In this document: in pieces, positions 1-34,760 of the stretch
Layout of the letters: each line of letters begins with the position of its first letter
Numbering within the stretch: the first letter of the stretch is position 1
DNA from: a virus
Taxonomy: Duplodnaviria; Caudoviricetes
DNA length: 45,612 bases
Strand: one strand, 5' to 3'
Virus record (IMG/VR): IMGVR_UViG_3300031519_009791
Coordinates: 1-45,612 of that record
The notes under the pieces: model-generated
The model's input: only the letters and a program-made list of their open reading frames with translations
The model's database searches: none
Told to the model about the DNA's origin: nothing
Translations under genes and position numbers: made by a program

Positions 1-943
1 ATGTGCCTTCCTTGGTAAACATCTTCATTGCCTGCAATAATTTCTGCTCAGGCATAAACTCTAAAGCTTTCAGAAATGATATTCGATCCCCCGTTTTTGG
101 CATTGACATGGGAAGATTTTTATCATAACTAAAAGCCGAATAATTAGGAACGAATCCTGAATTTGCCATATTTGGATCAACCTTTAAATGCTTTCCTTGA
201 GATACGACACTTTGAATTTTATCGAGATGCAGTCTTCTGTATCCCCCAGCCCCTTTACCAGCTGAAGCTGCATGCACTACCCTAGACTTTCCTAGGGGCG
301 AATTTTTATCAAAATCAGCCCAAGACGAAAATCCCTTTGGAGCACTCGCTCCTTTTTTGTGAGCATGCACTCCATGTCTTGCTCCTGTAAATGTTAGATC
401 TTGAACACTTCCTGATTTAGGTTGGTATTTTATGGATTTAAATAAACCATTTGTTATGATTTTATCTAGAGCTCCCATTCCTATCGTATCATCGAACTTA
501 TTAGAATGTATTCTTCCTTTCTTAGATGCAGCTTTCGCAGCATTTATTCTTAAGCCATAATTAGGAATATGACCCTTGCTTTTCGACATATCCCAGGAGT
601 CTGGCTTGTTTATGTTTAAACTCCCCCTCATGTTTTTGGGGATAATCATTGACGGAAATAAATGAGGGGGAGTAGGCCTTCCTTGTTTCATGAAGCCATC
701 CTTCCAATACATCGACATTGCCTTATCGAACATGCCTGGACTTAAATCTCTAAATCTTTTCCCTGTTGTGTTATAAAAGTTGCCTCCCTTGTTGGTTTTT
801 GGAGTGTGATACTTCTTTACTTGCCCCGCCCATTTTGCTTGGCTTAGCATTTCATCAGAGCTTTGCATCATAGCTCTATCCGCCCCGCCCATTTGAGAGC
901 TATTCCCCCACCTACTCTTTGCAAAATTAGGAACATATCCTTT
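1..943. repeat. Long direct repeat, copy B (cassettes 9-11)
   Basis: Aligns to 3562-4492 with an offset of 3549-3561. Segment 574-940 is about 95% identical to 4123-4489 by eye. Confidence 0.93.
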
Positions 944-3900
944 GCTTAATCCTAAACCTTTCCTCATTGATTTAGTTATATAGCTACCTTCGTTAAAGTT
1001 TTTGTTGGAACCCTTCAAGGCATATTCTTTTAATTCTTTAGTCAACTCACTAACTCTTAACTTCCCAATGGATGTGCTCTGCATTCCTTTGCTCTTTAAG
1101 CTTATTAACTCTTGAGCCTTTTGTTGCATTATTCTTTTTTGCTCTTGCTCTGCTGACATTCTGCCTCCAGCCCTTACTGCTCCAGCTCCTAGTATGCCTG
1201 GAAGTAGCAATGTTGCTGCAGCTGGCGGAAGCATCGAATAGGCAGCTCCAATGCCTCCCATGGTGCCTAACCAGCCCCTAGGATCATCTAATAGAGTATC
1301 GTTGACTCCTTTCACTATTCCTTTTCCAGCTCCGTAAACCCCCTTTACAGCACCTCTTCCTAGTTTATAAGCTCCTTTGCCGAACCCCATTGCAATCTCT
1401 TTGCCCAGACCCAAAGCTCCAGTCAAGCCTTCTTTGCCCATCATTAATGCTTCTTTTCCTAAAACATAAGGAGCTAAGTTGTTTCTATTATCCCAAGCTT
1501 TTGACCCCATCCTTTTTGCAAAAGACCCAAATCCATAATTGGGAACATGCCCTTCGTTGAACCATCCTTTAGTAGCCCTGCCACCAGGCACTCTTTCTGA
1601 TTGGGGAGAACTAAATCCTGGTGATGCCCAAGTTAATTCGTGCTCTACGGAGCCCTTAGTGTTGATCTTTTTTTCTTTTAGTATTTTGTATATATCTTCG
1701 TGATACCTACCTAAAAAAGTTTGCCCGCCTGCTGTAGTAACTCCAGCTCTATAACTACCTCCGAATTTAACAGAGGAAAGAGGGTCCTTCTGCCATTTCT
1801 TGTTATGCTTAACTGTGCTAATATCAAATAATTGTGGCATGTTTGGAGATTCATAAGGCTTAGCTGCCGAATCCATTTGCCCTCTTTTTACTATAAATCT
1901 TTTTAATTTCGCAGCCTCTAGATTCTGCCTTGGGCTCATTTTACTTCTGGTGTTCATGGCCATACTTTCTGGCCTAAACATAGCATAATTGGGCACATGA
2001 CCTTTATTTGATATTTTATATGTGTAATTCTCCCCTCCCCACATTCCATTTTGTCCACCGACATCTTTGTGGAATTGAAGATCTTCAGCTTTTTCTACTT
2101 TAAATTTCTTCCCCTTAGCTATGCTATCAACAACCCTCATCGCAGAAATAGATGTGCCCATGTCTCCATATAATCCAGTGTATCCATTTTTCTTAGAGTA
2201 TTGAGCCATGTGTTCGTACAAATCTTTTCCGTAACCTTTTCCCCTTAAAGAAGGATTAGCGTCTGAAGTCATTATTACCTGCAATGCTCTTTTGTTTGGA
2301 TCTTTAAAGTCGGCGATATCTATAGCATGAGATGTTGCAAAATTTTTACCACCCACACTGGACTCAAAAAATACCTGCTTAGGAGGTCCGTCCATATCAT
2401 TTCTCGGCCCATCATCCCTAACCTTGGTTTTATATGTAGCTGGAATTCTTGCACTCGCATAATTAGGAATATGCCCACTTGCATCAAATGGATTTTTCCC
2501 GCCCATTCCTCTAAATCTTCTACTATAAATTAAACTTCTTAAATCTGGCAAGTTCTTTAAATTGTTATTTCCTCTTGCTCCTCTTGTTTTAAATTTTGAT
2601 CCCCCTAAGAACCCATCTAACTTATATGCTGGGTCTTTGTGAAGCCCTAGAGACCGAAAAGCTTGAACAGAAGTCATTCCTTCTTTTTCCATTAACCTCT
2701 CGATAGCTGCCATATCTCCTTTATTTTTCATTCCTGGAATAAGATCTCTCATTCTTTCTCCAGACGAAGTGTTTCTTGCAGCAGTATTATTTGTATTTAC
2801 AATTTGGTTAAGAACTCCAGAATCAACACCCCTACGCGTAATCGCATCGTCTCCCCTAAACCGCCCGCTTGTCGCTCCAAATTTATTATTTACAGTCTTA
2901 ATGTTGCCATCTTTGTCTATATATTGCGACCCAAGAGCAAGTCCTCCTGACCCCCTTGGAGCTCTTGAATTACCAGAACGGCCCATTCCTGACAAAGCAT
3001 CTAAGACGGCTGGGTTCGATCTAGAAAGGTGATGGAAAAGTCTTTTACGCTTATCTAAATTGCTTAAATTTTTATCTGGATCGAAAGGCAAGCCTAAAGT
3101 GCGAGGCGGAGCCATGGCTTGATTTTGAGCAAGCAGTTGATTGAAATTCTTACTACTTCTTGATTGCTTGAAAGCTTTTTCAATATAACCTCGAACAGAT
3201 CCAGATTTTTCTCCGTTAGAAGATCCAGCCATTAGAAAGTCTTCTCTTATTAAACTTAATCTATCTTTCTTTTTTTGTCCAGAATGAATTCCATCCTCAA
3301 TACTTTTCATTCTAGGAATCATTCCATATTTAGACATGAAATGTTTTTTCTCGTCCCCTGTTAATGCGGCTTCTATTCCTATGGAGGTAGATTTTCCAGT
3401 AAGATATTTGTAAAAAGATTTCATAACAGCAGGGTTTTGTAAAATTTCTCCCTGTCTTTTGTCGGAAAAGTGACCTAGTCCTAACATATTAGAGCTTCCT
3501 TGTGGGAAATTCTTCTGAAAGTCTTTTATTGACATTCCAGGATAAGACCCCTTAAAGTCAAGTGGGCCTTCCTTGGAGAACATCTTCATAGCCTGTAACA
3601 ACTTCGGCTCTGTCATGAACTCTAAAGCTTTTAGATGAGTTACTCTTTCTCCCGCTTTTGGTACTGAAAAAGGAAGATTTTTATCATGATGAAAAGCTGA
3701 ATAATTTGGAACGAATCCAGAATTCGCCATATTTGGATCAACTTTTAAATGTTTTCCTTGAGATACGAGACTACTTATTTTCTTTAATTTTAGTTTTCTA
3801 AATGCATCAGCTCCTTCTCCTGTTGATCCGATCCACATAGAGCGTGTCTCCGTGGCTTTATCCATCTCTCCATAAGAAACATAATTACCAGGAGGAGGCG

Positions 3901-6754
3901 CTCCTTTTTTGTATTTATTTACTCCCCATCTAGCATTTGTATAAGTTAAATCGTTACCAGCTTTAGATGTATAGTTTAAAGATTTAAATAAGCCAGTTGT
4001 TAGGATATTATCTAACTCCTTCATTCCTATAGTTCCATCAAACTTATCAGAATGTATTTTGCCTTGCCCTATACTTTTAATTTTATTAGCATTTATCTTT
4101 AAACCATAATTAGGAATATGCCCCTTGCTTTTCGACATATCCCAGGAGTCGGGCTTGTTTATGTTTAAACTCCCCCTCATGTTTTTGGGAATAATCATTG
4201 ACGGAAACAAATGAGGGGGAGCAGGGCTTCCTTGTTTCATGAAGCCATTCTTCCAATACATCATCATTGCCTTATCGAACATGCCTGGACTTAAATCTCT
4301 AAATCTTTTCCCTGTTGTGTTATAAAAATTGCCTCCTTTTTTGGTTTTTGGAGTGTGATACTTCTTTACTTGCCCCGCCCATTTTGCTTGGCTTAGCATT
4401 TCATCAGAGCTTTGCATCATAGCTCTATCTGCCCCGCCCATTTGAGAGCTATTTCCCCACCTACTCTTTGCAAAATTAGGAACAAAACCTTTTGAATATG
4501 GAAGTTCTAGTTTTCGGGAAGATTTCCTTGCTGAATTTAATTGTTCAACCATTCCATAAATTAAATCGTCTTGATTTGTTCCTGCCCCCCATTCTTTCGG
4601 AACATTACCTCCAAAATTCTTTAAAGATTTATTGATTTCTCCTCTAAAATCGCTTCCTTTATTTTGAATTAATTTTTTATAAATTTTTTCTCTTATAGAA
4701 TTCATTTCCGTACCTGTAGCCATTGCTGGCCCATAAGAATGCCAACTATCAGCGAATTTTTTTCCGCCACCCATTTTTAGGTTCATAGCGGTAGATTTTC
4801 CATGAATTAATGCCCTTGCTATATTTACTGGACTCTCTGAATTATAACTCAACCTATTTCTTGCAAAATTAGGAACAAAACCTCTGCTTGCATATGGATT
4901 AAACCCATGTGTTTTCCCAAATGCTTTTTTGTAATTTTTACCAGCCTTACTTGTTCTGGGAGGCATAATTGCTGGCTGAACCATTCCTGGAAAGTTTTTT
5001 ACATTTTCTGCAGTATTATATACAACTCTTCCTTGACCTGGCATATCCATTGATTTTACTGCTCCTGGTGAATAACCGCCAGCTCTTGCTCCAGATTTTT
5101 CAAAGCTTTTTTCAACACTCGATGCATAATTAGGAATGTGACCAGAACTTCTTCTTCTTAGTTGTGCATTATATCCAGCCCTAGATATAGCAGGAGCAAT
5201 AGCAGATGCAGAAGCCGCTATCCTAGTTTGCTCTTTTGATTGAGCCTGCAGTATGGTTAGAATAGTTCTTTCTTGGGCGGCTCGATTACCCTCTTGTGAT
5301 AATATCTTTTTTTGCAATGCTGAATTTTCAGCTAGAACTCCAACAATGGATTTTTGAATATCTCTTTGATTTTTTGTTGTAGAAACGATGCCTAACAACT
5401 CTTTTACAGACCCCCCTAAAAATGAGAAAGTTTTAAATAATAATTTTCCTAATATTCCTATCGCTAAGACCATTCCAGGCCCAGCTATAACATTGCCAAA
5501 ACCTTTTATAAACCCTCTGGCTGTATCTGACCCAAATCCTTCTCCGTTCTTAAGTCCATCATTTACAAAATTTATAACAGACTGAAAAGAAGCTAGATAA
5601 TTTCTAAGATTATCCTCAAAAGCTAAATTCCCAACAGTTGCCGCAAACTCTTGAATTCCAGTAGCTGCTTGACTAGTTAATGCTGATAATGTTTGATTAA
5701 GGAGTTCGTTCTTTTTAATGGCTTCATCTGTTGCTTGATTAGATATTTTTGTTGCCCTAGCAAGAATACTATTTTGCTCTCCTAAATCTTTAATTGCGGC
5801 TTTTAATATGTTGATTTGGAAAACTCCACCTACTTGCTCTGCCACTGCAGCTTTAGTGGTGTCTGCTAAATGCTCATAAGTCTTAGATAAGTTTTCTAAA
5901 ACCCTAATAGCTGGCAATGTATTACCTCTAACATCTCTAACTGCTATTCCTAACTCCTCAAGTCTTTTAATTGTGCTAGATCTTTGGATCCTAGTAAATA
6001 TAGTTTTAAAACTATTACCTATTACCTTGCCCCCTCTAGCGGTCATTTGTTGAGCTGCTGTAACTGCACCCAATAACTCATCAAAGCTAACTCCTGCGTC
6101 TTGAGCGACAGCACCAGCTCTAGAAACAGCATCAATTAAATCTTCAGTACTAACTGCAAACTGAACATCAACAGCTGCCATTTTACTTAAAATTTTAGTT
6201 GAATCAAGTCCAGCTTTATTAAATGTATTTAATGCGGCAGTTAAACCACTCACCGCATTTGCTGCGTCAAGCCCAGTTAACCTAGTTAAGATAAGAGCAT
6301 CGTTAGTTCGCTTTAGAGTTTCCTCCATAGATAAGCCCTGCCTAGCAAGCTCAGTTGCGGCTATAGCAACAGTATTAAAACTTTGAGCTGTGTTTTTTGC
6401 GACTTTAAATAAACCATCTCCAAATGCGGCTAATTGTTTATTAGTTACTCCCATGACGACATTAATATCTGCCATCCTTTTTTCGACTTGTATGGTTTCT
6501 CTAATTAAAGCTGCAAATGATTTTTGTACAGCTTGAATAATACCAACAGAAGCTCCAAAAGCTAAAACACGAGCATTAGATGCTTCAAGAGATTTATTAA
6601 ATTCACTTACAGATCCTGTAATTTTGCCCAAAGGTCTAGTGAATTGCTTTTCATTAATGTTAACAGATAAACCGCCTGTTCTGTTAACTTTTTTTACGGC
6701 ATTCCTTATTGACCTTTCTAGTCCTGACTGAACTGTTTGTACTCTAATTGGCAT
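1..6754 (-). CDS. Giant tail tape-measure protein with C-terminal modular cassette array (3' end beyond window)
   Basis: ATG at 6754 (MPIRVQTVQSGLERS...). The frame appears open to the window edge: the 11 repeated motifs are all in this frame and the track lists no terminated minus ORF here. The N-terminal ~540 aa is Ala/Leu-rich and TP901-like (ELARQGLSMEETLKRTNDALILTRLTGLD...AGVSFDELLGAVTAAQQMTARGGKVIGNSFKTIFTRI). It lies directly downstream of the tail tube gene. Confidence 0.92.
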   Translation of the reverse strand, partial: MPIRVQTVQSGLERSIRNAVKKVNRTGGLSVNINEKQFTRPLGKITGSVSEFNKSLEASNARVLAFGASVGIIQAVQKSFAALIRETIQVEKRMADINVVMGVTNKQLAAFGDGLFKVAKNTAQSFNTVAIAATELARQGLSMEETLKRTNDALILTRLTGLDAANAVSGLTAALNTFNKAGLDSTKILSKMAAVDVQFAVSTEDLIDAVSRAGAVAQDAGVSFDELLGAVTAAQQMTARGGKVIGNSFKTIFTRIQRSSTIKRLEELGIAVRDVRGNTLPAIRVLENLSKTYEHLADTTKAAVAEQVGGVFQINILKAAIKDLGEQNSILARATKISNQATDEAIKKNELLNQTLSALTSQAATGIQEFAATVGNLAFEDNLRNYLASFQSVINFVNDGLKNGEGFGSDTARGFIKGFGNVIAGPGMVLAIGILGKLLFKTFSFLGGSVKELLGIVSTTKNQRDIQKSIVGVLAENSALQKKILSQEGNRAAQERTILTILQAQSKEQTRIAASASAIAPAISRAGYNAQLRRRSSGHIPNYASSVEKSFEKSGARAGGYSPGAVKSMDMPGQGRVVYNTAENVKNFPGMVQPAIMPPRTSKAGKNYKKAFGKTHGFNPYASRGFVPNFARNRLSYNSESPVNIARALIHGKSTAMNLKMGGGKKFADSWHSYGPAMATGTEMNSIREKIYKKLIQNKGSDFRGEINKSLKNFGGNVPKEWGAGTNQDDLIYGMVEQLNSARKSSRKLELPYSKGFVPNFAKSRWGNSSQMGGADRAMMQSSDEMLSQAKWAGQVKKYHTPKTKKGGNFYNTTGKRFRDLSPGMFDKAMMMYWKNGFMKQGSPAPPHLFPSMIIPKNMRGSLNINKPDSWDMSKSKGHIPNYGLKINANKIKSIGQGKIHSDKFDGTIGMKELDNILTTGLFKSLNYTSKAGNDLTYTNARWGVNKYKKGAPPPGNYVSYGEMDKATETRSMWIGSTGEGADAFRKLKLKKISSLVSQGKHLKVDPNMANSGFVPNYSAFHHDKNLPFSVPKAGERVTHLKALEFMTEPKLLQAMKMFSKEGPLDFKGSYPGMSIKDFQKNFPQGSSNMLGLGHFSDKRQGEILQNPAVMKSFYKYLTGKSTSIGIEAALTGDEKKHFMSKYGMIPRMKSIEDGIHSGQKKKDRLSLIREDFLMAGSSNGEKSGSVRGYIEKAFKQSRSSKNFNQLLAQNQAMAPPRTLGLPFDPDKNLSNLDKRKRLFHHLSRSNPAVLDALSGMGRSGNSRAPRGSGGLALGSQYIDKDGNIKTVNNKFGATSGRFRGDDAITRRGVDSGVLNQIVNTNNTAARNTSSGERMRDLIPGMKNKGDMAAIERLMEKEGMTSVQAFRSLGLHKDPAYKLDGFLGGSKFKTRGARGNNNLKNLPDLRSLIYSRRFRGMGGKNPFDASGHIPNYASARIPATYKTKVRDDGPRNDMDGPPKQVFFESSVGGKNFATSHAIDIADFKDPNKRALQVIMTSDANPSLRGKGYGKDLYEHMAQYSKKNGYTGLYGDMGTSISAMRVVDSIAKGKKFKVEKAEDLQFHKDVGGQNGMWGGENYTYKISNKGHVPNYAMFRPESMAMNTRSKMSPRQNLEAAKLKRFIVKRGQMDSAAKPYESPNMPQLFDISTVKHNKKWQKDPLSSVKFGGSYRAGVTTAGGQTFLGRYHEDIYKILKEKKINTKGSVEHELTWASPGFSSPQSERVPGGRATKGWFNEGHVPNYGFGSFAKRMGSKAWDNRNNLAPYVLGKEALMMGKEGLTGALGLGKEIAMGFGKGAYKLGRGAVKGVYGAGKGIVKGVNDTLLDDPRGWLGTMGGIGAAYSMLPPAAATLLLPGILGAGAVRAGGRMSAEQEQKRIMQQKAQELISLKSKGMQSTSIGKLRVSELTKELKEYALKGSNKNFNEGSYITKSMRKGLGLSKGYVPNFAKSRWGNSSQMGGADRAMMQSSDEMLSQAKWAGQVKKYHTPKTNKGGNFYNTTGKRFRDLSPGMFDKAMSMYWKDGFMKQGRPTPPHLFPSMIIPKNMRGSLNINKPDSWDMSKSKGHIPNYGLRINAAKAASKKGRIHSNKFDDTIGMGALDKIITNGLFKSIKYQPKSGSVQDLTFTGARHGVHAHKKGASAPKGFSSWADFDKNSPLGKSRVVHAASAGKGAGGYRRLHLDKIQSVVSQGKHLKVDPNMANSGFVPNYSAFSYDKNLPMSMPKTGDRISFLKALEFMPEQKLLQAMKMFTKEGT
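137..5143 (-). repeat. Eleven dispersed in-frame 21-nt repeats encoding G-[HFY]-[IV]-P-N-[YF]-[AGS]
   Basis: Copies at 5123-5143 GHIPNYA, 4862-4882 GFVPNFA, 4469-4489 GFVPNFA, 4103-4123 GHIPNYG, 3698-3718 GFVPNYS, 2456-2476 GHIPNYA, 1982-2002 GHVPNYA, 1532-1552 GHVPNYG, 920-940 GYVPNFA, 554-574 GHIPNYG and 137-157 GFVPNYS. Confidence 0.95.
3562..4492. repeat. Long direct repeat, copy A (cassettes 3, 4 and start of 5)
   Basis: Aligns to 1-943. Confidence 0.93.
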
Positions 6755-6857: not shown

Positions 6858-8462
6858 TTATTTTAGAGCAGGCATTCCGTAGTGACCAGTGATAATCGAT
6901 CTATTAGCTCCCGATATAAAAACACCGTGTGCTAAATCCTCTGGACCACCAATTTGAGTGGTAAAGGATAAGTCAACGGATTTATTACTTCCGATATCGG
7001 AACTAACTGACTCACTGTCAATTCGAGCTCCTTTGAAATCAATAATCATAGAGTCGGTAGCTTCTCCCGCTCCGCAAGATTGATTAGCTTTCATTCTAAT
7101 TCTAACGTCTCTCTCTTCGCAATCATCAATGATGGTTGCAAGGTTTCCTGTGGAAACCTCAGAGATTAAAGCACTGATGCTCATTGTTGCAACAACTGGG
7201 AAGTCAACAACACGCGAGAATGCGAACCTTGTTCCAAGCCTATCAATTGGGCTTCTGGAAAGAGGTAAGGAAAGGCTAAAGTTCTGAATGTGAACTCCTC
7301 CATCTCCGCTAACATCAGCAAAGATAGAAAGTCCTTGAGGAACTTCAAGGGTAATATCTCCAGGACGTAAAGCTGTGGCTCCAACATTTCCAGTAGATGG
7401 TGCGACTCCTTGAGAGTCTCCCCTCATACCCGTAGGTTGACCAAGCGAGAATTGAGTGCCTGTTATTGCTTTACCATCATCAAGGGTTACACCAGGAATA
7501 TCAATCCCTGTAGTTCCCTTGTCTGACTTCGCATTGAACAACTCAACTGTAGCAGAAGCTGTGGGAATAGATCCGACAGAAGCCTCAATTGAGTAGTCAC
7601 TAAGGTATCCATTACCAAGACCAATAACACTTCTATCGTCTATTGAACGAGTCGTATTGAAAGCATCAGTACCTTCTGGAGTTGTTAGGATGAAAAAGTT
7701 TCTACCAGCAGAGTCATCTTGAAGGTGTCCTTTAGCGGAAGAAAGTTGGCTCGCTCCCATTCCTTCTCCTTTGTTATCTGCACCTTGAACGTAGAAACCA
7801 AGATTTCTTTCATTAAATCCATCGGTTGGGTAATAAGTAAAATCAAGATTAACTGTAGGTGGCTCAAGAGCGATAGCGTCAATTCTTGCGAGCTGACCAA
7901 AAGTATTAACATCAGTACGATTAATCGTAAAGCTGTAGTTAGCGCTTTGTACTCTATGAAGCTGTTGAATTAAATTCGAATAAGTTCCACTTGCAGGCTG
8001 AAGATATACACCTGTTGTGAGGTCTTGAGCGGTAGCGGTGGAGGTGGCATTATAATTAGTTTGGAATTTTTCCCAATTCGCTAAATTAGTAAAATAAGAT
8101 ACTCCTCCTACTATAGCACTGGTATTGTTCCCGTGAGAAACAACACTTGCTGTTGAAAAAGGGCTCGTTGCGGCGACTTTTCCACTAATATTGAACAAAT
8201 CTTCATTGATGAGGTTGCTTTTGATTGCAACTTTAGCTGCTGATGCAGTACCTGCAGTAGCATCACGCTGCGCTAGTAAAGGATCGATCCTTAACCCTAC
8301 TGTTTGAATTGAATGAAGTTGGGGTTCAATACTTAACGCCGACGAAGCAGACCCTGTCATGCCTCCTCCAGTTAATACCGCCGAAACTGTAAAGTGTGCT
8401 CCCGTTGCATTGGGACTTGTAAATAACGCTTCGCTTTGATAAATTACTCTGTTTCTTGCCAT
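6858..8462 (-). CDS. Major tail (tube) protein, putative
   Basis: 534 aa, rich in Gly/Ser/Thr with beta-type composition. Sits between neck genes and the tape measure and is followed by a strong terminator, as expected for an abundant structural gene. Confidence 0.7.
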   Translation of the reverse strand: MARNRVIYQSEALFTSPNATGAHFTVSAVLTGGGMTGSASSALSIEPQLHSIQTVGLRIDPLLAQRDATAGTASAAKVAIKSNLINEDLFNISGKVAATSPFSTASVVSHGNNTSAIVGGVSYFTNLANWEKFQTNYNATSTATAQDLTTGVYLQPASGTYSNLIQQLHRVQSANYSFTINRTDVNTFGQLARIDAIALEPPTVNLDFTYYPTDGFNERNLGFYVQGADNKGEGMGASQLSSAKGHLQDDSAGRNFFILTTPEGTDAFNTTRSIDDRSVIGLGNGYLSDYSIEASVGSIPTASATVELFNAKSDKGTTGIDIPGVTLDDGKAITGTQFSLGQPTGMRGDSQGVAPSTGNVGATALRPGDITLEVPQGLSIFADVSGDGGVHIQNFSLSLPLSRSPIDRLGTRFAFSRVVDFPVVATMSISALISEVSTGNLATIIDDCEERDVRIRMKANQSCGAGEATDSMIIDFKGARIDSESVSSDIGSNKSVDLSFTTQIGGPEDLAHGVFISGANRSIITGHYGMPALK

Positions 8463-10908: not shown

Positions 10909-11670
10909 ATGAAAGAAATATATAGTTTTGATTTGGAGATAGAGAAAGAGGTTGAGAAAACCGTAGAAAAAAAACGCAAGAATAAGGAAACAGGAGAGCA
11001 GGAAACAGTTTCGACAACTAAAACTGTGAAGGAGCCTGTAGTTCATAGAATCATTCTCAAAGAGCCAAACAGAAGGCAACTTGAAGATGCCGACATGGAG
11101 TACAGTATAGAAATGAGCAAGTGTATTAAAAATGGCATTTTAACTAAAGCTATGCTTGCTAAGAAATACAGCGATACTGGGGGTCTTTTAAGCGAAGAAG
11201 ATGCTAGGTTCTTAACTAGGAAGTATAGTGAGCTTGGAGATTTGCAAAATAAATTTGGAAGGTTATCCGCTAAGCCAAAAAAAGAAAAGAAAGATGAAGA
11301 TAATTTATCCTCGATACTTGGCCAGATAGGCGAGAAAAGAAAAGAAATTGTGGACATGGAAACTAGCTACTCTTCGCTTTTTAATCATACCGCAGATAGT
11401 AAAGCTCAAAACAAGGTTTTACTTTGGTATTTAGTGAATCTTTCTTATTATAGAATATCTGAAGATGAAGAGTGTATTCCTTTCTTTAATGCAGAAGAAA
11501 CTGAAGAAAAAATTGATCAGTATTACGAGGTAGATGAAGAAGGTCATGAAATATTTGACATGATAAAAGATAAAATAACAACCATATTAAGCTTTTGGTA
11601 TTTTAGCCAAGGCGCCAACCTAGAAGATTTCGACCAACTCAATAAAGATATAGATTCAGGCGATGTCTAG
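10909..11670 (+). CDS. Hypothetical acidic protein, possible tail assembly chaperone
   Basis: 253 aa, charged and helical, located within the morphogenesis module. Confidence 0.45.
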   Translation: MKEIYSFDLEIEKEVEKTVEKKRKNKETGEQETVSTTKTVKEPVVHRIILKEPNRRQLEDADMEYSIEMSKCIKNGILTKAMLAKKYSDTGGLLSEEDARFLTRKYSELGDLQNKFGRLSAKPKKEKKDEDNLSSILGQIGEKRKEIVDMETSYSSLFNHTADSKAQNKVLLWYLVNLSYYRISEDEECIPFFNAEETEEKIDQYYEVDEEGHEIFDMIKDKITTILSFWYFSQGANLEDFDQLNKDIDSGDV

Positions 11671-12667
11671 TAAGGTTCATCCTTCTCAATGGAGAAGGAT
11701 GTTTAGGGATGTGGTAAAAGGTTTTACAAGAAAGGAAACGGAAACTTATGGAATTGTTTATATAAAGCACTTAACAACTCATGACCAGGTTGATCTTGAA
11801 GAAATAGAAGATACTTTTTTTGAGAAAGCTCAATCAAAAGGACTTAGCACAGAAAAAGAAAGGCTTGATTCGTTAATTAAAGAAGGTGGATGGACCAAGG
11901 AAGATAGTAAATTTTTAGAATCCCAGAAGGCTTTTATAGGAAATTTAAATAAAGCCAAATTTGACCTAATCTTAAAGTCTCAAATAGATGCTCAACAAAA
12001 AATCATAGAGTCTGAGCTTAAAAAATTAAATGAAAAACTTTTTGAAAAAGAATCCTTGATAGGAAATACTTGCGAAAAATACTCAAAACAAAGAGTTAAT
12101 GATTACTACATAAGCAGAAGTTTTTTTAAAGACGATACTTGCCTTGATCCTTTATTTACTGAAAAACAATATGAAGAATTAACATATAGTGAAGTCGGTT
12201 TTTTTGTAAAAACCCATAATTCGCAATTTTCTTTATTTGAAGAAGAGAATATACAAAGAATGATTCTTGAAGATTTTTATTTTCCATACATGCCTTTTTG
12301 CGAAGATACTATTCAATTTTTTGGAAAACCTGTTTGTGCATTAACTCACAATCAATTAAAATTAATTTTATTTACTAGAGTATTTAAAAATATTTTCGAT
12401 AATAATGAAAACATCCCTGATAAAATAAGGAAAGACCCTCAAGCTTTAATGGATTTCGCTTCCTCCTCAAGAAAGGGGAAAGAAGTTATGGATAAACATG
12501 CGGAAAAGGGTGGGCACAGCACTATAGTAGGCGCTACAAAAGAAGACTATGAATATATGGGAGTTAGTGCCAACGAATCAAAAGGCACACAAACTTTACA
12601 TCAAGCGGCAGAGAAAAAAGGGGGATCCCTAAATATGAATGACTTGATGGATCTTGCTGGTCAGTAA
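11663..12667 (+). CDS. Hypothetical protein, possible second tail assembly chaperone
   Basis: 334 aa with a coiled-coil-like centre; overlaps the upstream gene by 8 nt. Confidence 0.4.
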   Translation: MSSKVHPSQWRRMFRDVVKGFTRKETETYGIVYIKHLTTHDQVDLEEIEDTFFEKAQSKGLSTEKERLDSLIKEGGWTKEDSKFLESQKAFIGNLNKAKFDLILKSQIDAQQKIIESELKKLNEKLFEKESLIGNTCEKYSKQRVNDYYISRSFFKDDTCLDPLFTEKQYEELTYSEVGFFVKTHNSQFSLFEEENIQRMILEDFYFPYMPFCEDTIQFFGKPVCALTHNQLKLILFTRVFKNIFDNNENIPDKIRKDPQALMDFASSSRKGKEVMDKHAEKGGHSTIVGATKEDYEYMGVSANESKGTQTLHQAAEKKGGSLNMNDLMDLAGQ

Positions 12668-23838: not shown

Positions 23839-24533
23839 AAGAAAATGTCTCTTTTATTTATTAGTTTTTCTGCTATTAGTTTGTATTTTATTTTTAAATT
23901 TTTTATTTGTTTATATCCAGCCTTTCTATTTTTTTCATTAGTTTTATATCCCAACTTTAATGCCACCTCCTCTTCAGTCATTTTTGATATAAATAACATT
24001 TGATAGATTTTGTAATTTTTTTCATTCAATTCTTTTTTCATTAATTCATGAAATTTTTCTATATCACTATCAATACCCCTTGAGAAATAAAACTTACCTT
24101 TAACTTCTGGGTTGATCTCTTCCATCGAAACTGGCATCTTAACATTGCATGCATGTTTTTTTGATTTTTCCCATTTTTTATAAAGGGGGCAAGTTGCGTC
24201 CTGGATCCCACTTGTTGTGAAAGAGCATGTATTTTCACCGTCAAATGATGTATTTAGTGGGCAACCGACACAAGGCTTAACAAAACTATGATAATAATTC
24301 CTCAGTATATTCTTGAATTGATTTGTAATAATTTTATTAATCCACGGAAGCAATGAGCGACTTTGATCCCATTGATCCCATTTTTTAAATAAGTGGAACC
24401 TTATTATTTGAGAAACATCGTCGAAGTCTAGCCAATTCAAAGAAGCCAGTCTCCATTTAGGTCTTCGCTTCCTTATCTCATTGTCAACTTCTTCTATTCT
24501 GTCCTCGTAATATATTTTTCTTTTTCGACCCAC
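23835..24533 (-). CDS. Phage sigma70/ECF-like sigma factor
   Basis: Region-2-like DFDDVSQ...WINKIITNQFKNILR, a Cys-rich insert, and region-4 HTH MTEEEVALKLGY. GTG start. Confidence 0.75.
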   Translation of the reverse strand: MGRKRKIYYEDRIEEVDNEIRKRRPKWRLASLNWLDFDDVSQIIRFHLFKKWDQWDQSRSLLPWINKIITNQFKNILRNYYHSFVKPCVGCPLNTSFDGENTCSFTTSGIQDATCPLYKKWEKSKKHACNVKMPVSMEEINPEVKGKFYFSRGIDSDIEKFHELMKKELNEKNYKIYQMLFISKMTEEEVALKLGYKTNEKNRKAGYKQIKNLKIKYKLIAEKLINKRDIFL

Positions 24534-24877
24534 TACGCCTTTTTGTTTTTCTTTTTCGATCCACTACGACTTTTTGTTTTTCTTTTATTTATTTCACCGA
24601 AATCATTTTCATTTAACCCTAATAACTGACCGCCTTTAAATACCTGAAGTCCTCCTTGCGACACTTCGTATTGAAGTTCATTTATTTCAGGCACATAATC
24701 CATATCTGTTTCGTCATCTTCTAGTTCGACATGTTCTTCTTTATTTGCTATTGCCGAATTAGTCACTTTCTCCTTTACTCCTTTTTTTAAAGGGGCTGCA
24801 CACCCCCCGCAAAAATTAGGCACGTTTAGTGTGTATGAGTTTTTAAAGCCGCACTCAGGACAGTATATTACAGACAT
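24533..24877 (-). CDS. Zinc-ribbon protein
   Basis: CPECG...FCGGCA at the N-terminus. Confidence 0.75.
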   Translation of the reverse strand: MSVIYCPECGFKNSYTLNVPNFCGGCAAPLKKGVKEKVTNSAIANKEEHVELEDDETDMDYVPEINELQYEVSQGGLQVFKGGQLLGLNENDFGEINKRKTKSRSGSKKKNKKA

Positions 24878-27217: not shown

Positions 27218-28813
27218 ATGAAAAAACCTAAACTTTTTTGTTTTTATACTCCCTCTCACAAGGCTTTCTTTGATAATTTCTTAAAACCTAGTGCAGAAAA
27301 AGAGTACGAAATAAACGAGGTCTTTTTTGAAAAACAACTTTCTGATTCGGGGGAGTATAGGTTAGAAGGTTGGAGAGAAACTCAATACAATAAAGTTCTT
27401 GCTTGGAAAAATGCAGTCGCTTCAAATATGGGAGAAGTTATAATTTGTTGCGATGTTGATATTCAATTCCTTAAGAAATCATTCTCTTATTTTGAGAGAG
27501 AAGTGCAAGACTATGATATAATTTATCAAGAAAACGATCTTAAGGGTAAAATATGCTCAGGATTTTTTGCATGCAAATGCTCCCCTAAGACAGAGTTCTT
27601 CTTCAGTTTGGTAGCTGAGAAATTAAAAGCCATAATGCACGAAAAAGGTGGAGGTGAGCAGTATGTAATGCAGGGTGTTCTTGATGATGGTGAAGTGAAT
27701 TTATTATGGAAGAAGTTCCCCAGAGACTTAGTTTGGAATCCTGGAGAAAAATACTCAGATGTTTCAGAACTTAAAGTCCCAGACAGCATTATTGTTCATC
27801 ACGCAAATTGGGTAGAAGGAAATGATAACAAAAAAGCTCAATTAGAATATGTAAAAAGCATTTTTGGGTATGATGAATCTGAAGCCGAGCCCGCCCAAGA
27901 GGAGTTTGGAGAACTTCAAGACCTCACTAAAGACCCTTCGTCTATCGCAATATGTCTATCTTCATTACTTAGATTCTTCGATAAAAGCTCCGAGTCTTTG
28001 ATAGGTAATGTGATCACAGAACTTCCTGAGCCTCCAGACTTTTTCGGACACTTTCCTACGAAAAGTTTAAATATTGAAAATATACGATTATTAAAAAATA
28101 TTTTAAAATATTGTAATAATTTTGATATTAAGTTTGAGGAAGATGTTGCGGATAGAAAGTATTTTTCTTATGATAAAAATTTAAATAGACATCAAAGAAA
28201 CGGAATGATGGGAAACATATACCAATGGGTTTCCATGAAAAAATCTAGAGACCTAAAGATTAATGCTGAAAATAAATTTGATAAAAAATATGACCATGTT
28301 ATTTGGACTAGACCTGATCTTTATTATTTTAATGAAATTCCAGATATCAATTCTCTAAAAGATTTTGATATATATTTTCCATCTCATGACAACCACTTTT
28401 GTGGAATCTTTGATAGATTCTGCATTGGTAAGTCTGAGGTTATGGATAAAAGAATGGATATTTTAAATTACTTTGTTAACGAGTGGTATCCTAAATATCA
28501 TTATGATGAAAGATATTTATATTACAATCCCCATGCAAATTCTTATCAATGGAATCCAGAACTTGTATTAAGCGATTATATGAATGTTTTTTTGAAAATC
28601 GACTATTCAAAAATAGATTTATGCACAGGTAAATTTAGGGGTCACAATAGATGCACTTCTCCATTTTGGCATATGGTTCAAGGATCGATATCTCATGAAA
28701 ATAATCCAGGATGTACTGAGGACGAGATAAATCTAAAAGTTCTTGAGGATATCTATACTAATTATGATATCGATTTAAATAGTAAAAATTATTGGTTTGA
28801 GGTTTTTGTATGA
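27218..28813 (+). CDS. Two-domain glycosyltransferase (nucleotide-diphospho-sugar transferase/GT77-like plus second GT-A-like domain)
   Basis: CCDVDI DxD motif, CSGFF, EQ and HHANW in the first domain; YDHVIWTRPDL...DRF in the second. Confidence 0.8.
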   Translation: MKKPKLFCFYTPSHKAFFDNFLKPSAEKEYEINEVFFEKQLSDSGEYRLEGWRETQYNKVLAWKNAVASNMGEVIICCDVDIQFLKKSFSYFEREVQDYDIIYQENDLKGKICSGFFACKCSPKTEFFFSLVAEKLKAIMHEKGGGEQYVMQGVLDDGEVNLLWKKFPRDLVWNPGEKYSDVSELKVPDSIIVHHANWVEGNDNKKAQLEYVKSIFGYDESEAEPAQEEFGELQDLTKDPSSIAICLSSLLRFFDKSSESLIGNVITELPEPPDFFGHFPTKSLNIENIRLLKNILKYCNNFDIKFEEDVADRKYFSYDKNLNRHQRNGMMGNIYQWVSMKKSRDLKINAENKFDKKYDHVIWTRPDLYYFNEIPDINSLKDFDIYFPSHDNHFCGIFDRFCIGKSEVMDKRMDILNYFVNEWYPKYHYDERYLYYNPHANSYQWNPELVLSDYMNVFLKIDYSKIDLCTGKFRGHNRCTSPFWHMVQGSISHENNPGCTEDEINLKVLEDIYTNYDIDLNSKNYWFEVFV

Positions 28814-29880
28814 AGATAGATTTCGAAATAAACTCTTTATCTAAATATTGCGAAAATAGGAATATTCCAATAAAATATTTTTATAAAAATAGCTCAGTTA
28901 AAAAATTTACAAACATTCCAAAAACATTAGATTTGGAAGTTCATTGGTCGCATAAAAAATATATATCTAAAATAAGAGAATACTCTATGGATGATCAATA
29001 TGTGTGTGAATTAGAAGATTGCAAAATTCTAGGATATAATCGATTGGGATCAATTAAATTGCTAACAAAAAATAATGAGCTTATAAAATCAGAATCAACT
29101 AATTACGAGCAAGACGAATTAAGTTTCAGAAAAAAAAATCAAGCTAAAGGTTTAAGTGTTCTTTTATGCTCTGATTCTGCTACTGTTTTTTTTCATTGGA
29201 TGTTTCAGCTTTTACCAAGAATAGATCTTTTGAATAAATATAATCTAAATTGGGATAATGTAGATAATATAATTTTACCAAATAATATCGGTCAAGAATT
29301 TCACACAAAAACTCTTAACCACTTAAATGTGCCAATTGATAAAATTTTGAGATTGAAAAGGGATGAAGTTATTGAATGTGAGAAATTAATCGTACCTTCT
29401 ATTCCAGTCAAAAATATTTTTTTCTCAAATTGGATTTATGATTTTTTAAAGAAAAATTTTTTAAAAAAAGAAAAAAAACATTATGAAAAAATTTATATAT
29501 CTAGAGAAAGGGCCAAATCAAGGAAGGTAGATAATGAGGAGGAGGTTTTTAATTTTTTGAAAAATAAAGGATTCACAAAAGTGTCTATGGAAGATTGTGA
29601 CGTTTTTGATCAGGCTGATATGTTTTATAATGCAAAAGAGATTGTCTGCCCCCATGGATCATGTTTAGCTAACCTAGCTTACTGTAAACCCAAAACAAAA
29701 ATTTTAGAATTTTTTAGCGCTAATTATGTGACTTTGCTTTATTGGTCTATGTCAAATGATTTAGATCTAGATTATTCTTATTTAATTGCTGAAGGAGAAA
29801 GACCTCCTGATGGCGAAGATCCTCATTTAGGTAAAGAAAATATGACTATAGATATAAAACAATTAAAGAAATTAATATAA
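28810..29880 (+). CDS. Glycosyltransferase family 61 (DUF563-like)
   Basis: FFHWMFQLLPR, KIYISR...RKVDNEEE, PHGSCLANL and LEFF. Confidence 0.88.
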   Translation: MKIDFEINSLSKYCENRNIPIKYFYKNSSVKKFTNIPKTLDLEVHWSHKKYISKIREYSMDDQYVCELEDCKILGYNRLGSIKLLTKNNELIKSESTNYEQDELSFRKKNQAKGLSVLLCSDSATVFFHWMFQLLPRIDLLNKYNLNWDNVDNIILPNNIGQEFHTKTLNHLNVPIDKILRLKRDEVIECEKLIVPSIPVKNIFFSNWIYDFLKKNFLKKEKKHYEKIYISRERAKSRKVDNEEEVFNFLKNKGFTKVSMEDCDVFDQADMFYNAKEIVCPHGSCLANLAYCKPKTKILEFFSANYVTLLYWSMSNDLDLDYSYLIAEGERPPDGEDPHLGKENMTIDIKQLKKLI

Positions 29881-29882
29881 AA

Positions 29883-30659
29883 ATGAATAGCATTAACATA
29901 TTAATTCCATATAGAAACAGAGAGGAAGATCTTAAAAAACTTTTACCAACCCTTAGGGAGTCTCTTGATTTTTTAAATTTAACTCCCTTTTTTATTGTAT
30001 CCGAACAAACAAACGATCAACCTTTTAATAAAGGAGCTGTTTTTAATGCTGGCTTTAAAGAAGGTTTAAAGTTTAAAAAAAGCAACTACTGGATATTGCA
30101 CGATGTTGATATTTTTGAAAAAACTCCTGGACTTTTAAATTATTGCCAAGCAGATGGAGTGTCATCTGTTTTTACTCATGATATTAACACATGCCCAGGT
30201 GGGGGTATTACATGTATTAATGAAGAATCTTTTAAAAAAATAAATGGCTTCACAAATGAATTCTGGCATTGGGGACTAGAAGACAACGACTTTAAGCAAA
30301 GAGTCGCTGCTGTTAAAATTCCGATCTTACACTCCGAAAAAGTTTTTTACAAAAGCCCAGGTTCTCAAAAAAGAAATCCAAATCAAAAAATATGGAGAGA
30401 GGTTGTCCTGCACTCCGCCACTCCTAAAACTGATAAAAGAGAGAAAAAAATTGATAAAAATCAAAATAATTTGTTTCGAAAATTTATTCAGGGGTATAAA
30501 AAAGATCCAAATTCAGTTATGAATGATGGATTAAATAATGTTAAGTATAAATTAATTAATAAAGAAATGATAGAAAGTGATATTGTAAAGTTTACAATTT
30601 ATATATCACCATCTGATCATAATATGCTCGAACAAATAGATAAAGAAAAAGATGAATAA
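29883..30659 (+). CDS. GT7-like (beta-1,4-galactosyltransferase family) glycosyltransferase
   Basis: IPYRNR, FNKG..FNAG, HDVD and NGFTNEFWHWGLEDNDF..R. Confidence 0.88.
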   Translation: MNSINILIPYRNREEDLKKLLPTLRESLDFLNLTPFFIVSEQTNDQPFNKGAVFNAGFKEGLKFKKSNYWILHDVDIFEKTPGLLNYCQADGVSSVFTHDINTCPGGGITCINEESFKKINGFTNEFWHWGLEDNDFKQRVAAVKIPILHSEKVFYKSPGSQKRNPNQKIWREVVLHSATPKTDKREKKIDKNQNNLFRKFIQGYKKDPNSVMNDGLNNVKYKLINKEMIESDIVKFTIYISPSDHNMLEQIDKEKDE

Positions 30660-31284
30660 CTTGTTTGACAAAATATACTGCATAAATCTAGATAAAAGAA
30701 AAGATAACTGGGAGGAGTGCAAAAAAGAATTTGAAAAATTTTCAATCGATTCCGTTTGCAGAATTTCTGCAGTAGATGGTGAAAAACTTTTTGAAACAGG
30801 GAAATACCCCTCTAAAGTTAAAGCATGCGAACGTGGTCTTGTTTTATCTAATATTAAAATCTTTGAAGAGGCTAAAAATAAAAATTTAGAAAATATATTA
30901 ATTATGGAAGACGATGTGTCTTTCAGTGATGATATTAATCAAATTTCTGAATTAATGACACTTGTTCCAGAAGATTGGGATTTAATTTATTTTGGAGCTA
31001 ATCATTGCACCCAAGAAGGTAAAGAGCCCCCTCATAAGATTAATGACAGAGTCGTGAAATGTCACTACTCCAAAGCAACTCATTGTATCGGTTTTAATTC
31101 TCGCACTTTTGATTTTATATTAGAAAATTTAAAAAAACATAATTTGCCACTTGATGTAATTTATATTAGATATCTACAATCAACATTTAATGTTTATTCT
31201 TTTTTTCCTGCCCTAGTTAGCCAGAGCCCAGGTTATAGTGATATCCAATCAAGGAATTGTAACTATAAAAAATTTATTAAATAA
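30652..31284 (+). CDS. Glycosyltransferase family 25
   Basis: YCINLDKRKD, RISAVDG, ILIMEDDV and WDLIYFG. Confidence 0.88.
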   Translation: MNNLFDKIYCINLDKRKDNWEECKKEFEKFSIDSVCRISAVDGEKLFETGKYPSKVKACERGLVLSNIKIFEEAKNKNLENILIMEDDVSFSDDINQISELMTLVPEDWDLIYFGANHCTQEGKEPPHKINDRVVKCHYSKATHCIGFNSRTFDFILENLKKHNLPLDVIYIRYLQSTFNVYSFFPALVSQSPGYSDIQSRNCNYKKFIK

Positions 31285-31285
31285 A

Positions 31286-32065
31286 ATGATTATAGTGAAA
31301 CTAAAAGGGGGCCTCGGTAATCAATTATTTCAATGGGCTTACGGGTATCAATTAAGCTTTGATAATGAAGTTTATTTTGATGATTCATTTTATGCAAACA
31401 AGAGTAACGGGAAAGGTGTTTTGGATGGACGGCGATTCGACCTAAACAAAATTTTATCGCAAAATGCACCTCTTTGTAATGAAGATATTAAAAAAAAGTT
31501 TTCAGAAAAACCTATTCGCAAGATTGGGGATAATTTTCATTTCAATAATTTCAAATTTGATGAAAAATATAATTATCTTCTAGATGGGCATTGGCAAAGC
31601 GAAAAGTATTTTAGAAAAACAAAAGAAGAAATTTATAATATAATAAAAAAAAAATCATTTGTAGGTTTTAATTTTTTAAATTCTTGCTCAATTCATGTAA
31701 GACGTGGAGATTATTTGAATATACCAGATATCCATCCAACTCAACCAATCGATTTTTACAAAAAGGCTCTTGACATAATTCAACCAAAAGGAAAAACTTT
31801 TATTTTTTCTAATGATATTAATTGGTGCAAAAAAAACTTTAAATTTAAAAACATGATTTTTGTTGAGGGGCATAGCAATATCGAAGATCTTTTATGCATG
31901 TCTTTATGCGAAAATAATATTATTGCAAATAGTACATTTAGTTGGTGGGGAGCTTATTTAAATCAAAACAAAAATAAAGTTGTAATTTATCCCAGTGCTT
32001 GGTTTGGTTCAGCCGTACATCATTCTACTAAAGATTTATTCCCATGTAGTTGGGTTAAGATTTGA
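31286..32065 (+). CDS. Alpha-1,2-fucosyltransferase-like (GT11)
   Basis: GGLGNQLFQ, GHWQSEKYF, IHVRRGDY and IIANSTFSWWGAYL. Start moved to ATG 31286 (MIIVKLKGG). Confidence 0.92.
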   Translation: MIIVKLKGGLGNQLFQWAYGYQLSFDNEVYFDDSFYANKSNGKGVLDGRRFDLNKILSQNAPLCNEDIKKKFSEKPIRKIGDNFHFNNFKFDEKYNYLLDGHWQSEKYFRKTKEEIYNIIKKKSFVGFNFLNSCSIHVRRGDYLNIPDIHPTQPIDFYKKALDIIQPKGKTFIFSNDINWCKKNFKFKNMIFVEGHSNIEDLLCMSLCENNIIANSTFSWWGAYLNQNKNKVVIYPSAWFGSAVHHSTKDLFPCSWVKI

Positions 32066-32089
32066 CAATGAAAAAAGTTTTTCTAAAAT
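32062..32089 (+). promoter_or_regulatory. Sigma70-type promoter with leaderless start
   Basis: TTGACA-16 nt-TAAAAT, with ATG 32097 exactly 29 nt after the -35 hexamer. Confidence 0.6.
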
Positions 32090-32096
32090 ATAAAAA

Positions 32097-32708
32097 ATGA
32101 TAAATCACAAATATAAATTTGCATATTTTGGAGCAGGAAAATGTGCAAGTAGTTCTATAATTGATGTTTTAAATAAAGTCCCAGGGGGTGAGGGAGGCCA
32201 ACATTGTACTATTATAGACTTATATCAAAAACGCAAACCATCTAAAATACCTAGTGATTATTTCACTTTTTCATTTTGTCGAAATCCATTTGATCGTCTT
32301 GTTTCTGCTTGGAATGAATTTAAGAAAAAAGATCAATTTTTATGGGCAAAAAATAGTAGATACTGGGAGAAGGAAATATTTAAATCATCTAAACTCTCAC
32401 TAGAAAATGTATCTGATAATTTTCCTGCATTTGCAAGGTATATAACAATTCAAGATCATATACACTGGTGCCAGTTTGATATACTTTCTAATATTGTTAG
32501 AATTGATTTTATTGGAAAAACTGAAAGTCTTCAGGAGGATTTTAATACTGTTTGTAATAAAATCGGCATATCGCAACAAACACTTTCACAAAAAAACAAA
32601 ACACAACACAAACACTACACCGAATACTATGATGACGAAACTCGTGAAATCGTTGCGGAAAAATACGCAAAAGACATCGAGCATTTCGGTTACAAATTTG
32701 GAAAATAG
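32097..32708 (+). CDS. Sulfotransferase family 2 protein
   Basis: KCASSSI 5'-PSB motif, RNPFDRLVSAW 3'-PB motif and DFIGKTESLQEDF. Confidence 0.88.
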   Translation: MINHKYKFAYFGAGKCASSSIIDVLNKVPGGEGGQHCTIIDLYQKRKPSKIPSDYFTFSFCRNPFDRLVSAWNEFKKKDQFLWAKNSRYWEKEIFKSSKLSLENVSDNFPAFARYITIQDHIHWCQFDILSNIVRIDFIGKTESLQEDFNTVCNKIGISQQTLSQKNKTQHKHYTEYYDDETREIVAEKYAKDIEHFGYKFGK

Positions 32709-32755
32709 AATAACCAGTTAATGAACTTCTATAGTCAAAACAATCAAGATAAATT

Positions 32756-33445
32756 ATGAAACTTAAATTTTTTTCAATTTTAAATTCTCTCGACAAAGAC
32801 TACCTTCCCCTGTATGAAAATTTTCTTTTTCATTTGAAAAATGTGGGCCTAGAAAAAGAGCACGAGTTAATAAAGTTAGATGTCGGCTCAGGGCAATGGC
32901 AAAGTAAAAACTTCAATAAAATTTGCATGGCAAAAGTAGATAATGCCAGAAAATTTTTAAAGGAGGGTTATACGGTTTTATATTCAGATCTAGATGTCGT
33001 TTTTTTAAAAGACCCACTTCCTTATTTACTTCCCATGCTCAAAGAAAAAGATATACTTTTTCAGTATTCTGCCAAAGGCAATCCTGCTTCCTATAATCCA
33101 TCCCCACCTACCAGGAAGGTTTGTATGGGATTCTTTGTAGCTAAGCCAACCCCCCTCAATATAGATTTATTTGATACTAGTGAAAATGTAGACCTCGACA
33201 CTCTCCCCCTCAATCATCCTTGCAGAAAGGATCAATCAGACCAGGGCTACACACAGGCAAAAATACGACAAATCAAAAAATATAAACAATTAAACCAAGG
33301 CATCCTTCCCCCTCCCCTCTTCCCTAATGGCATTAATTGGTTCAACAACCACAGGGATTTTGACCCTTATATAATCCACTATAATTATATAGTAAAACAA
33401 TCTGAAAAAATAGAGAGAATGAAGAAATTTGGTCACTGGAAATAA
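32756..33445 (+). CDS. Nucleotide-diphospho-sugar transferase (GT77-like)
   Basis: LYSDLDVVFLKDP, CMGFF, DQ, FPNG and IIHYNY. Confidence 0.85.
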   Translation: MKLKFFSILNSLDKDYLPLYENFLFHLKNVGLEKEHELIKLDVGSGQWQSKNFNKICMAKVDNARKFLKEGYTVLYSDLDVVFLKDPLPYLLPMLKEKDILFQYSAKGNPASYNPSPPTRKVCMGFFVAKPTPLNIDLFDTSENVDLDTLPLNHPCRKDQSDQGYTQAKIRQIKKYKQLNQGILPPPLFPNGINWFNNHRDFDPYIIHYNYIVKQSEKIERMKKFGHWK

Positions 33446-33451
33446 CATATC

Positions 33452-33979: not shown

Positions 33980-33988
33980 TAATTAATA

Positions 33989-34759: not shown

Positions 34760-34760
34760 T

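Follow-up and report, generated by a model that had tools for sequence, protein, structure and literature searches.

Tape-measure proteins of an uncultured marine phage and its relatives carry an internal, reshuffled array of motif-delimited modules

Here, we describe tape-measure proteins in which an internal array of cargo modules, each opening at the same short peptide motif, lies between an ordinary N-terminal core and a C-terminal ruler, and in which the number and order of the modules vary even among close relatives. This architecture is real, widespread and, as far as the literature was searched, unpublished: by titles and the beginnings of abstracts, with subscription journals mostly outside the scope, we found no report of a tape measure that carries an array delimited by a motif. 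The architecture and its shuffling are in our view nearly certain. As to function, we give an even chance to the reading that the internal array is a magazine of effectors that would be injected and cleaved at the joints; taken separately, delivery with the tail is probable, and cutting at the joint stands at somewhat better than even.

The window analysed here is the entire 45,612-nt contig of an uncultured marine phage, with a terminase gene and a minus-strand structural block. Its tape-measure ORF runs from 6754 to 2 on the minus strand and comprises 2251 aa, the 3' end being open at the contig edge. The initial annotation had placed about 537 aa of ordinary tape-measure sequence ahead of the array, and two family matches bear this out. 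The N-terminal core (aa 1-535; 5150..6754, minus strand) is that of a TP901-family tape measure (PF10145, aa 118-310, E 2.5e-26, 93.2 bits against a cut-off of 33.2; TIGR01760, E 1.4e-36, 126.2 bits against 28.8). It shows a hydrophobic stretch by hydropathy at aa 422-440 (nt 5491-5435) and is 70-90% identical across the clade. The gene directly upstream (6858..8462, minus strand), which matched nothing in Pfam, PHROG or NCBIfam, is likely from its position to encode the major tail (tube) protein. No gene separates it from the tape measure, so two genes of 253 and 334 aa at 10909-12667 (plus strand), which lie on the opposite strand within the minus-strand structural operon and recur in a complete 180-kb relative (G001), may be displaced tail-assembly chaperones; the pair gave no family matches.

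All 11 PN[YF] tripeptides of the ORF fall within G-[HFY]-[IV]-P-N-[YF], at exactly the positions first reported (aa 538, 625, 756, 878, 1013, 1427, 1585, 1735, 1939, 2061 and 2200). In 2000 shuffles of the ORF, one match arose in 13 and two matches in none. The module lengths were also as first given (87, 131, 122, 135, 414, 158, 150, 204, 122, 139 and >50 aa), and we name the modules, in order, A B C D E F G H C' D' E'. On the minus strand, cap module A (87 aa, 4889..5149, motif 1 at nt 5143) opens the array, as it does across the family, and is followed by module B (131 aa, 4496..4888, motif 2 at nt 4882), a predicted helical domain of unassigned function with 9 copies in the non-redundant set. 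The optional module C (122 aa, 4130..4495, motif 3 at nt 4489), module D (135 aa, 3725..4129, motif 4 at nt 4123), with a predicted WYL/Sm-like fold, and the length-variable module E (414 aa, 2483..3724, motif 5 at nt 3718; 18 copies in the non-redundant set, covered by alignment A4) come next. Module F (158 aa, 2009..2482, motif 6 at nt 2476) is the GNAT-type module, module G (150 aa, 1559..2008, motif 7 at nt 2002) has 6 copies, and module H (204 aa, 947..1558, motif 8 at nt 1552) is glycine-rich and hydrophobic. The second block consists of C' (122 aa, 581..946, motif 9 at nt 940), D' (139 aa, 164..580, motif 10 at nt 574) and the first 54 aa of E' (2..163, motif 11 at nt 157), which ends at the contig edge. 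The modules had been described as basic and globular-looking: they are basic (pI 9.2-10.4; net charge per 100 aa +8 in the array vs +3.6 in the core), but for H a globular nature is doubtful, as it is weakly similar to the core (E 0.002), with a hydropathy peak at aa 1842.

The three duplicated pairs noted at the outset were recovered, with identities of 95%, 56% and, over 53 aa, 77%, the last being that of E' to E. The copies C and C' are 92-100% identical in nucleotide sequence, beginning at the motif: identity rises from ~50% to this level at motif 3 and drops again at motif 4. D' is a distinct allele, 56% identical to D of the window and 82-89% identical to D of the relatives L001 and L011 (89% for L011). 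That D' is nearer to the D module of L011 than to that of the window points to an unequal crossover between strains, not to a simple duplication.

Is this architecture common? Our scans found 20, 27, 227, 16 and 266 relatives in overlapping sets, of which the best 80 were kept for each of the two largest, giving 204 examined loci (window and duplicates included) and 103 non-redundant ones; L064 duplicates the window and was excluded from all counts. At least two motifs occurred in a single ORF in 203/204 loci. The 103 non-redundant loci held 407 segments, which formed 73 clusters, 41 with a single member, and as the scans were queried mainly with cap A, these locus and segment counts describe A-bearing genes. 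The cap A profile matches 491 clusters at 50% identity, and 129 of 131 newly listed proteins carry at least two motifs, with a maximum of 13. Among the 74 full-length non-redundant relatives, cap A was found in 70 and a second cap, Z, in 69; one module lay between the caps in 49 of the 67 relatives with both, and two to seven modules in 18. The full-length layout is thus a core of ~535 aa, cap A, 1–7 cargo modules, cap Z, a helical ruler and a lambda gpH-type end. Because complete relatives go on past the array, that of the window is an internal insert shortened by the contig end. Two points of the initial annotation therefore changed: the first 87-aa module, taken there for variable cargo, is the conserved cap A, and the array, taken for a C-terminal continuation, is followed in relatives by cap Z and a ruler of ~2,000-2,200 aa.

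The C-terminal ruler domain is homologous to the lambda gpH C-terminus (HHalign 94%, E 1.5e-7), and the C-terminal GG...GE domain of relatives is also homologous to two repeats of the Douge tape measure. HHalign of caps A and Z against each other returned nothing but the motif. Compared as profiles with the C-terminal GG...GE domain and the ends of the T5 and lambda proteins, the caps again showed only the motif. When A and Z were modelled as a complex, the scores were 0.33, 0.00 and 0.00. By eye, both caps (alignments A6 and A7) share G-x-x-V-x-N-x(2,3)-E with near-invariant Asn and Glu, and on this pattern they may be distant paralogues or catalytic. Two unusual layouts were seen: a 3411-aa tape measure (L020) carries motif arrays at two sites, after the core and near the C-terminus, and a protein of 5198 aa (P0097) has a second cap A in mid-array, with WYL-like, ART-like and kinase-like modules by eye.

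The number and order of the modules vary among relatives whose cores are 70-90% identical, as the initial annotation had anticipated; a fixed order did not hold. The arrays read ABDEFxZ, AFEDIZ, AEDFZ, ADFEIZ, ABFHCDEZ, ACBEDF, ABHGEDFZ and others, and 5 of the 6 possible orders of D, E and F were seen at this level of core identity. Alignment ends in the arrays fell within 12 aa of a motif in 166/238 cases vs 14% at random, although the pairs are not independent. At 93 junctions (47 module pairs), positions -12 to -5, counted from the Pro, track the upstream module and positions from +2 onward the downstream module, while -4 to +1 track neither. As the motif core tracks neither neighbour, crossovers fall in the motif core. 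Thus, the modules are bounded by the motif as first stated, but the point of exchange lies inside the motif and not at its start. The junctions indicate that modules are gained, lost and reordered by crossover within motif-coding DNA.

Population data point in the same direction. We used contigs (not reads) of 8 of the 21 listed public seawater runs (X1-X8), some of which may share a campaign and of which X1 may be the window's own sample; one RNA run with 0.05 of the words lies outside these 8. In contigs from four of the eight runs (X2, X3, X4 and X6), an in-frame jump of net 366 nt from one motif to another leaves out module C, and the C-less contig of X3 had 5 differences from the window over 1,365 nt upstream. 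D' was joined to the GNAT motif in two (X5 and X7), and a D'-type allele stood ahead of E at motif 5 in X2, X3, X4, X6 and X8. Contigs of X4, X6, X7 and X8 diverge from the window where motif 9 ends, at 923, and by eye these loose ends resemble the start of cap Z, H running straight into Z-like sequence; X8 also diverges at 1561, just ahead of motif 8, and enters a different variant of the motif. Some joints lay elsewhere than at a motif, namely an in-frame replacement within E (2870/3073) in X2, X3, X4 and X5, a D/D' mosaic (489/4036) and two weak joints in X1.

Could the second block of the window be an artefact of assembly? A chimera of two strain haplotypes would concern C'-D'-E' alone, the array as such being real. 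In its favour, the contig terminates within the block, C and C' have an exact run of 89 nt in common, the X1 contigs of the block have about half the depth of the remainder, and H leads to Z in other runs. However, one X1 contig crosses the H-to-C' joint with zero differences and the first C-D-E block is at full depth (depth being a rough guide, and X1 maybe the window's own sample), so that some molecules should carry both blocks; we consider a chimera quite unlikely.

What is conserved at the joint? Over 426 distinct contexts, G is kept in 93%, [IV], P and N in 100% each and [FY] in 99%, the values for [IV], P, N and [FY] being partly set by the search pattern. The codons of the motif vary synonymously near background (176 motif rows) while G, P, N and [FY] are fixed, so selection acts on the peptide. 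The motif is, by this codon comparison, conserved as protein and not as DNA, and its DNA supplies microhomology for swapping. A DNA cassette site of the integron or shufflon kind was rejected on the same ground, and no recombinase matched among the 43 window ORFs scanned. Intein-like splicing, with A and Z as a bracket, was rejected too: such splicing expects a Cys, Ser or Thr nucleophile after the terminal Asn, and here F or Y follows the invariant Asn in 99%. The window's only other [IV]PN[YF], V-P-N-F-C-G in a 114-aa ORF at 24533-24877 (minus strand) that is kept in G001, is unlikely to have any relation to the joint.

The residue after [FY] is A, G, S or V in 81% of the 426 sites vs 32% in background, and L, F, W, Y, R or K in 15/426 vs 30% expected. 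The N-end rule links the N-terminal residue to protein stability, and the small-residue bias has the pattern that would be expected of a protease site and stable new N-termini. The joint is also predicted to be disordered (pLDDT <50 for residues 100-110 of the AF2 model of A and B), and the motif of some members shades into G-G-Y-I-P-G-Y-A-G-G, the ordinary tape-measure joint.

A cut at a joint of related appearance has been reported for T5, whose tape measure pb2 is cut into pb2* and pb2C, before A1128 (PMC10038345); the site is disputed in PMC11937520, as R1127 is also a trypsin site and earlier work gave V1148. The two sites, R1127 and V1148, correspond to masses of 121.8 and 124.0 kDa. With a motif profile built from the arrays only and one optional deletion, the reported cut before A1128 was the top site in the 1219-aa protein, at a score of just 6.4 bits and with the gap permitted post hoc, after the site was known. 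The short joint at the cut, F-V-P-R|A-E-G-G, resembles both the closing joint of the family, V-P-G-Y-A-E-G-G, and the array motif. T5 differs in that a single cut near the C-terminus frees a 92-aa piece, whereas the array here is internal, shuffled and capped, with up to 13 joints. In lambda gpH, the best array-profile site is at aa 112 and not near the C-terminal cut. This site, G-G-M-I-P-M-F at aa 104-112 (L051), lies near the N-terminus, just ahead of the favoured membrane helix at 116-140 (PMC12617516).

The modules might, alternatively, never be cut. They would then stay tethered as passengers to an ejected, membrane-anchored tape measure, and the motif would be a binding handle (for a chaperone, an unfoldase or the caps) as well as microhomology for swapping. 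There is a precedent in gp96 of the Thermus phage P23-45, the one tape measure whose large enzyme cargo has been characterised: it is fused to a virion RNA polymerase and is full-length in virions (PMC10770324). In L021 the array lies between hydrophobic stretches (aa 422 and ~2096) and could thus be a loop; the shuffling, selection and folding results fit equally well. However, a handle would have no need of small, non-degron residues behind [FY] or of a place at every boundary, and the likeness to the reported T5 cut also argues for cleavage. We regard uncut passengers as somewhat unlikely.

What does the array carry? AF2 models were made of A with B, of D and of E. The A-B model shows two confident domains (pTM 0.49; pLDDT 88-96 over model residues 21-90 for cap A, 69-94 for module B) and that of D a beta-rich domain over residues 28-134, while the model of E is unreliable. 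Independent folding, as the initial annotation proposed for the modules, is therefore predicted for A, B and D, with a disordered joint between A and B. For A or B no fold match was found (best Z 4.5; no Foldseek hit at E <= 0.001), B having filled the match list so that A was barely probed. Module D found stand-alone phage proteins of 85-116 aa by Foldseek (E 1e-4 to 9e-4, probability 1.0), one of them named WYL. The top four VIA rows were WYL regulators including PafBC, BrxR and CapW at Z 5.2-5.8, below the level for a clear match, with PafBC as the best (Z 5.8, rmsd 2.7, 70 residues aligned). The best ESM Atlas match, 0.82, was uninformative. No Pfam WYL match was found for D in the window or in the relatives scanned, and a sequence search among 1,320 candidates returned no stand-alone D homologue; only the fold search linked them. 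A WYL/Sm-like fold is thus predicted for D on structural models. WYL repressors control defence systems (PMC13622015), and we speculate that a WYL-type module could act as a decoy.

The initial annotation had called one module a clear GNAT. Module F is, as judged from its motif, a GNAT acetyltransferase, the acetyl-CoA motif A R-G-x-G-Y-G being invariant in 8/8, but "clear" was too strong: PF00583 scores 18.1 bits in the window against a cut-off of 20.7, and the sole match past the cut-off is that of L006 (23.9 bits). The commonest single cargo of the relatives, X, keeps E...D...(D/E)xK in 63/66 modules, which we take to be the PD-(D/E)XK nuclease signature. In the ESM Atlas, X matches viral clusters whose members are 158-208 aa long (0.90-0.91) and, at 0.86, a cluster of the Eco47II restriction enzyme, the latter likeness being a lead only. 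Other Pfam matches in relatives were DUF7178 (in 2) and PGDYG; ART-, kinase-, HAD-, ParB-, SNase- and methyltransferase-like modules were recognised by eye, with no profile support. Module G and most of the cargo have no family match, and PDB sequence searches with the D, X and GNAT profiles gave nothing significant. The mixed-module alignments A8 and A9, in which unrelated modules were stacked, were discarded.

The modules could in principle be neutral filler that lengthens the ruler, captured genes accumulating at a recombination-prone repeat. Most modules lack a recognisable family and H resembles tape-measure sequence, as filler might. Yet median dN/dS is 0.13-0.21 over nine module types (two pairs only for each of C, E and G), with 0.17 for module B and 0.13 for module F, and by these ratios the modules are under purifying selection. 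Catalytic-type residues are invariant and the motif is conserved as protein, not DNA, so that neutral filler is already largely refuted and we hold it to be very improbable.

How might an array of this kind reach the host? We propose that it would be threaded unfolded in the tail lumen and would leave with the tape measure, preceding the DNA. The GNAT, nuclease-type and WYL-type cargo need cytoplasmic substrates, so the modules would refold on the cytoplasmic side. A cut, most likely after P-N-[FY] and before the small residue, would free them as separate proteins, whose likely purpose would be early counter-defence or takeover.

A different course of events would be excision of the array during tail assembly in the producing cell, without injection; the caps would mark the excised stretch, the flanks would set tail length, and the cargo would act late or be packaged elsewhere. 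T5 and lambda tape measures are cut during tail morphogenesis, and PMC1796659 names the removal of an internal segment among known outcomes. In 12 complete clade members, the array varies from 680 to 1,525 aa next to near-constant flanks (core 535-541, C-part 2,007-2,195 aa) that do not compensate for array length (rho 0.20, p 0.53), the last motif of L073 having been missed by the pattern, which shifts its array and C-part lengths by ~84 aa. At ~0.16 nm per residue, the value given for the lambda and Douge tape measures in the literature, tail lengths of close relatives would differ by ~130 nm if the array counted. Against this, it is not clear what late-acting enzymes would gain from fusion to a virion protein, tails can be very long, as in P23-45, and a splice-junction nucleophile is absent. 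Excision is in our estimate distinctly improbable.

Which protease could cut an injected array? The one that cuts siphophage tape measures is called unidentified in PMC12617516. In G001, the tape measure precedes the tip genes in the tail operon, whereas in the window the contig ends before this region; behind the G001 tape measure and two unnamed genes follow gpM, gpL, JAB, gpI-like (called by position and by eye) and gpJ-like genes. The JAB protein is stand-alone, 127 aa long, with the metal ligands H-x-H-x7-S-x2-D intact, and of 80 loci in which the end of the gene is complete, a further 6 have a JAB homologue behind it; since JAB genes sit at least 5 kb downstream, where most flanks end or have already ended, their absence elsewhere carries little weight. 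The JAB protein of this lambda-like tail-tip operon is the best phage-encoded candidate for the cutter, with a host protease as the alternative. A head protease as the cutter found no support: the motif occurs in no head gene of the window, and no head protease was identified. A looser motif pattern matched 4 of 160 G001 ORFs, all of them outside the virion block. The JAB gene of L132, L134 and L192 has the reverse orientation and continues into a second region that resembles lambda gpK; in L033 (L077 was also considered), the genes just past the tape measure lie on the opposite strand.

The boldest reading is that the single maturation joint of lambda/T5-type tape measures was multiplied into a general cassette signal, yielding a reshufflable magazine of 1-10 captured genes between two caps. 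The magazine would be injected through the tail and cut into free effectors by the JAB protease of the tail operon, and one of the effectors would be a WYL decoy soaking up the single-stranded DNA signal of WYL-regulated defences. All of these elements holding together is unlikely.

Several known systems resemble the array in part. Lambda gpH shares with the relatives the homologous C-terminal GG...GE.V domain and a lambda-like tip operon with a JAB gene, but has no cargo array (PMC12617516), and caps A and Z are without detectable homology to its C-domain. P23-45 gp96 is likewise a giant tape measure bearing an enzyme active in the cytoplasm, but its cargo is single and fixed, and the available text of PMC10770324 describes no repeated joint. 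In polyvalent proteins, a single large virion-linked polypeptide encoded near virion genes combines many conflict-type domains that have no relation to one another (GNAT, ART, kinase, nuclease), and their release by proteolysis has been proposed (Iyer et al. 2017, PMC5512222). Unlike the array, they are built round HExxH metallopeptidases and MuF or portal fusions, such fusions being common though not universal, with no delimiting motif described in the available part of that paper; its main text contains the phrase 'tape measure' 0 times, and its supplements may hold such architectures. We found no HExxH peptidase in the 2251 aa of the window protein and one in 2/74 full-length relatives, and no MuF or portal Pfam match in the window protein or 13 long relatives. 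HExxH zincin-like modules were seen in two arrays (L125, aa 1200; L213, aa 1023). The mycobacteriophage tape measures TM4 gp17 (PMC1796659) and Douge gp16 (PDB 8ZDO) also hold host-related enzyme motifs within tape measures, and the two GG...GE domains of Douge gp16 are closed by a similar joint, L-P-x-F-[AD]-x-G. These enzymes, however, are wall hydrolases acting outside the cytoplasm, and a permuted array is absent.

If the joints are indeed cut, the tail would be a second route, beside head-packaged proteins, by which fast-evolving effectors enter before phage genes are read. As the motif marks domain borders exactly, the 73 segment clusters in 103 loci form a ready list of candidate counter-defence proteins, and the family is large, with cap A in the 491 clusters given above. 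The question of what cuts siphophage tape measures also becomes testable, 11 near-identical joints being a better substrate than one disputed site. A search for cultured relatives of the window phage found none, and two relatives' contigs lie in MAGs, each from a different phylum, which does not fix the host. At 27218-36768, the window also carries a twelve-gene block with glycosyltransferase, sulfotransferase, FkbM methyltransferase and hexapeptide genes, and G001 has more sugar-pathway genes.
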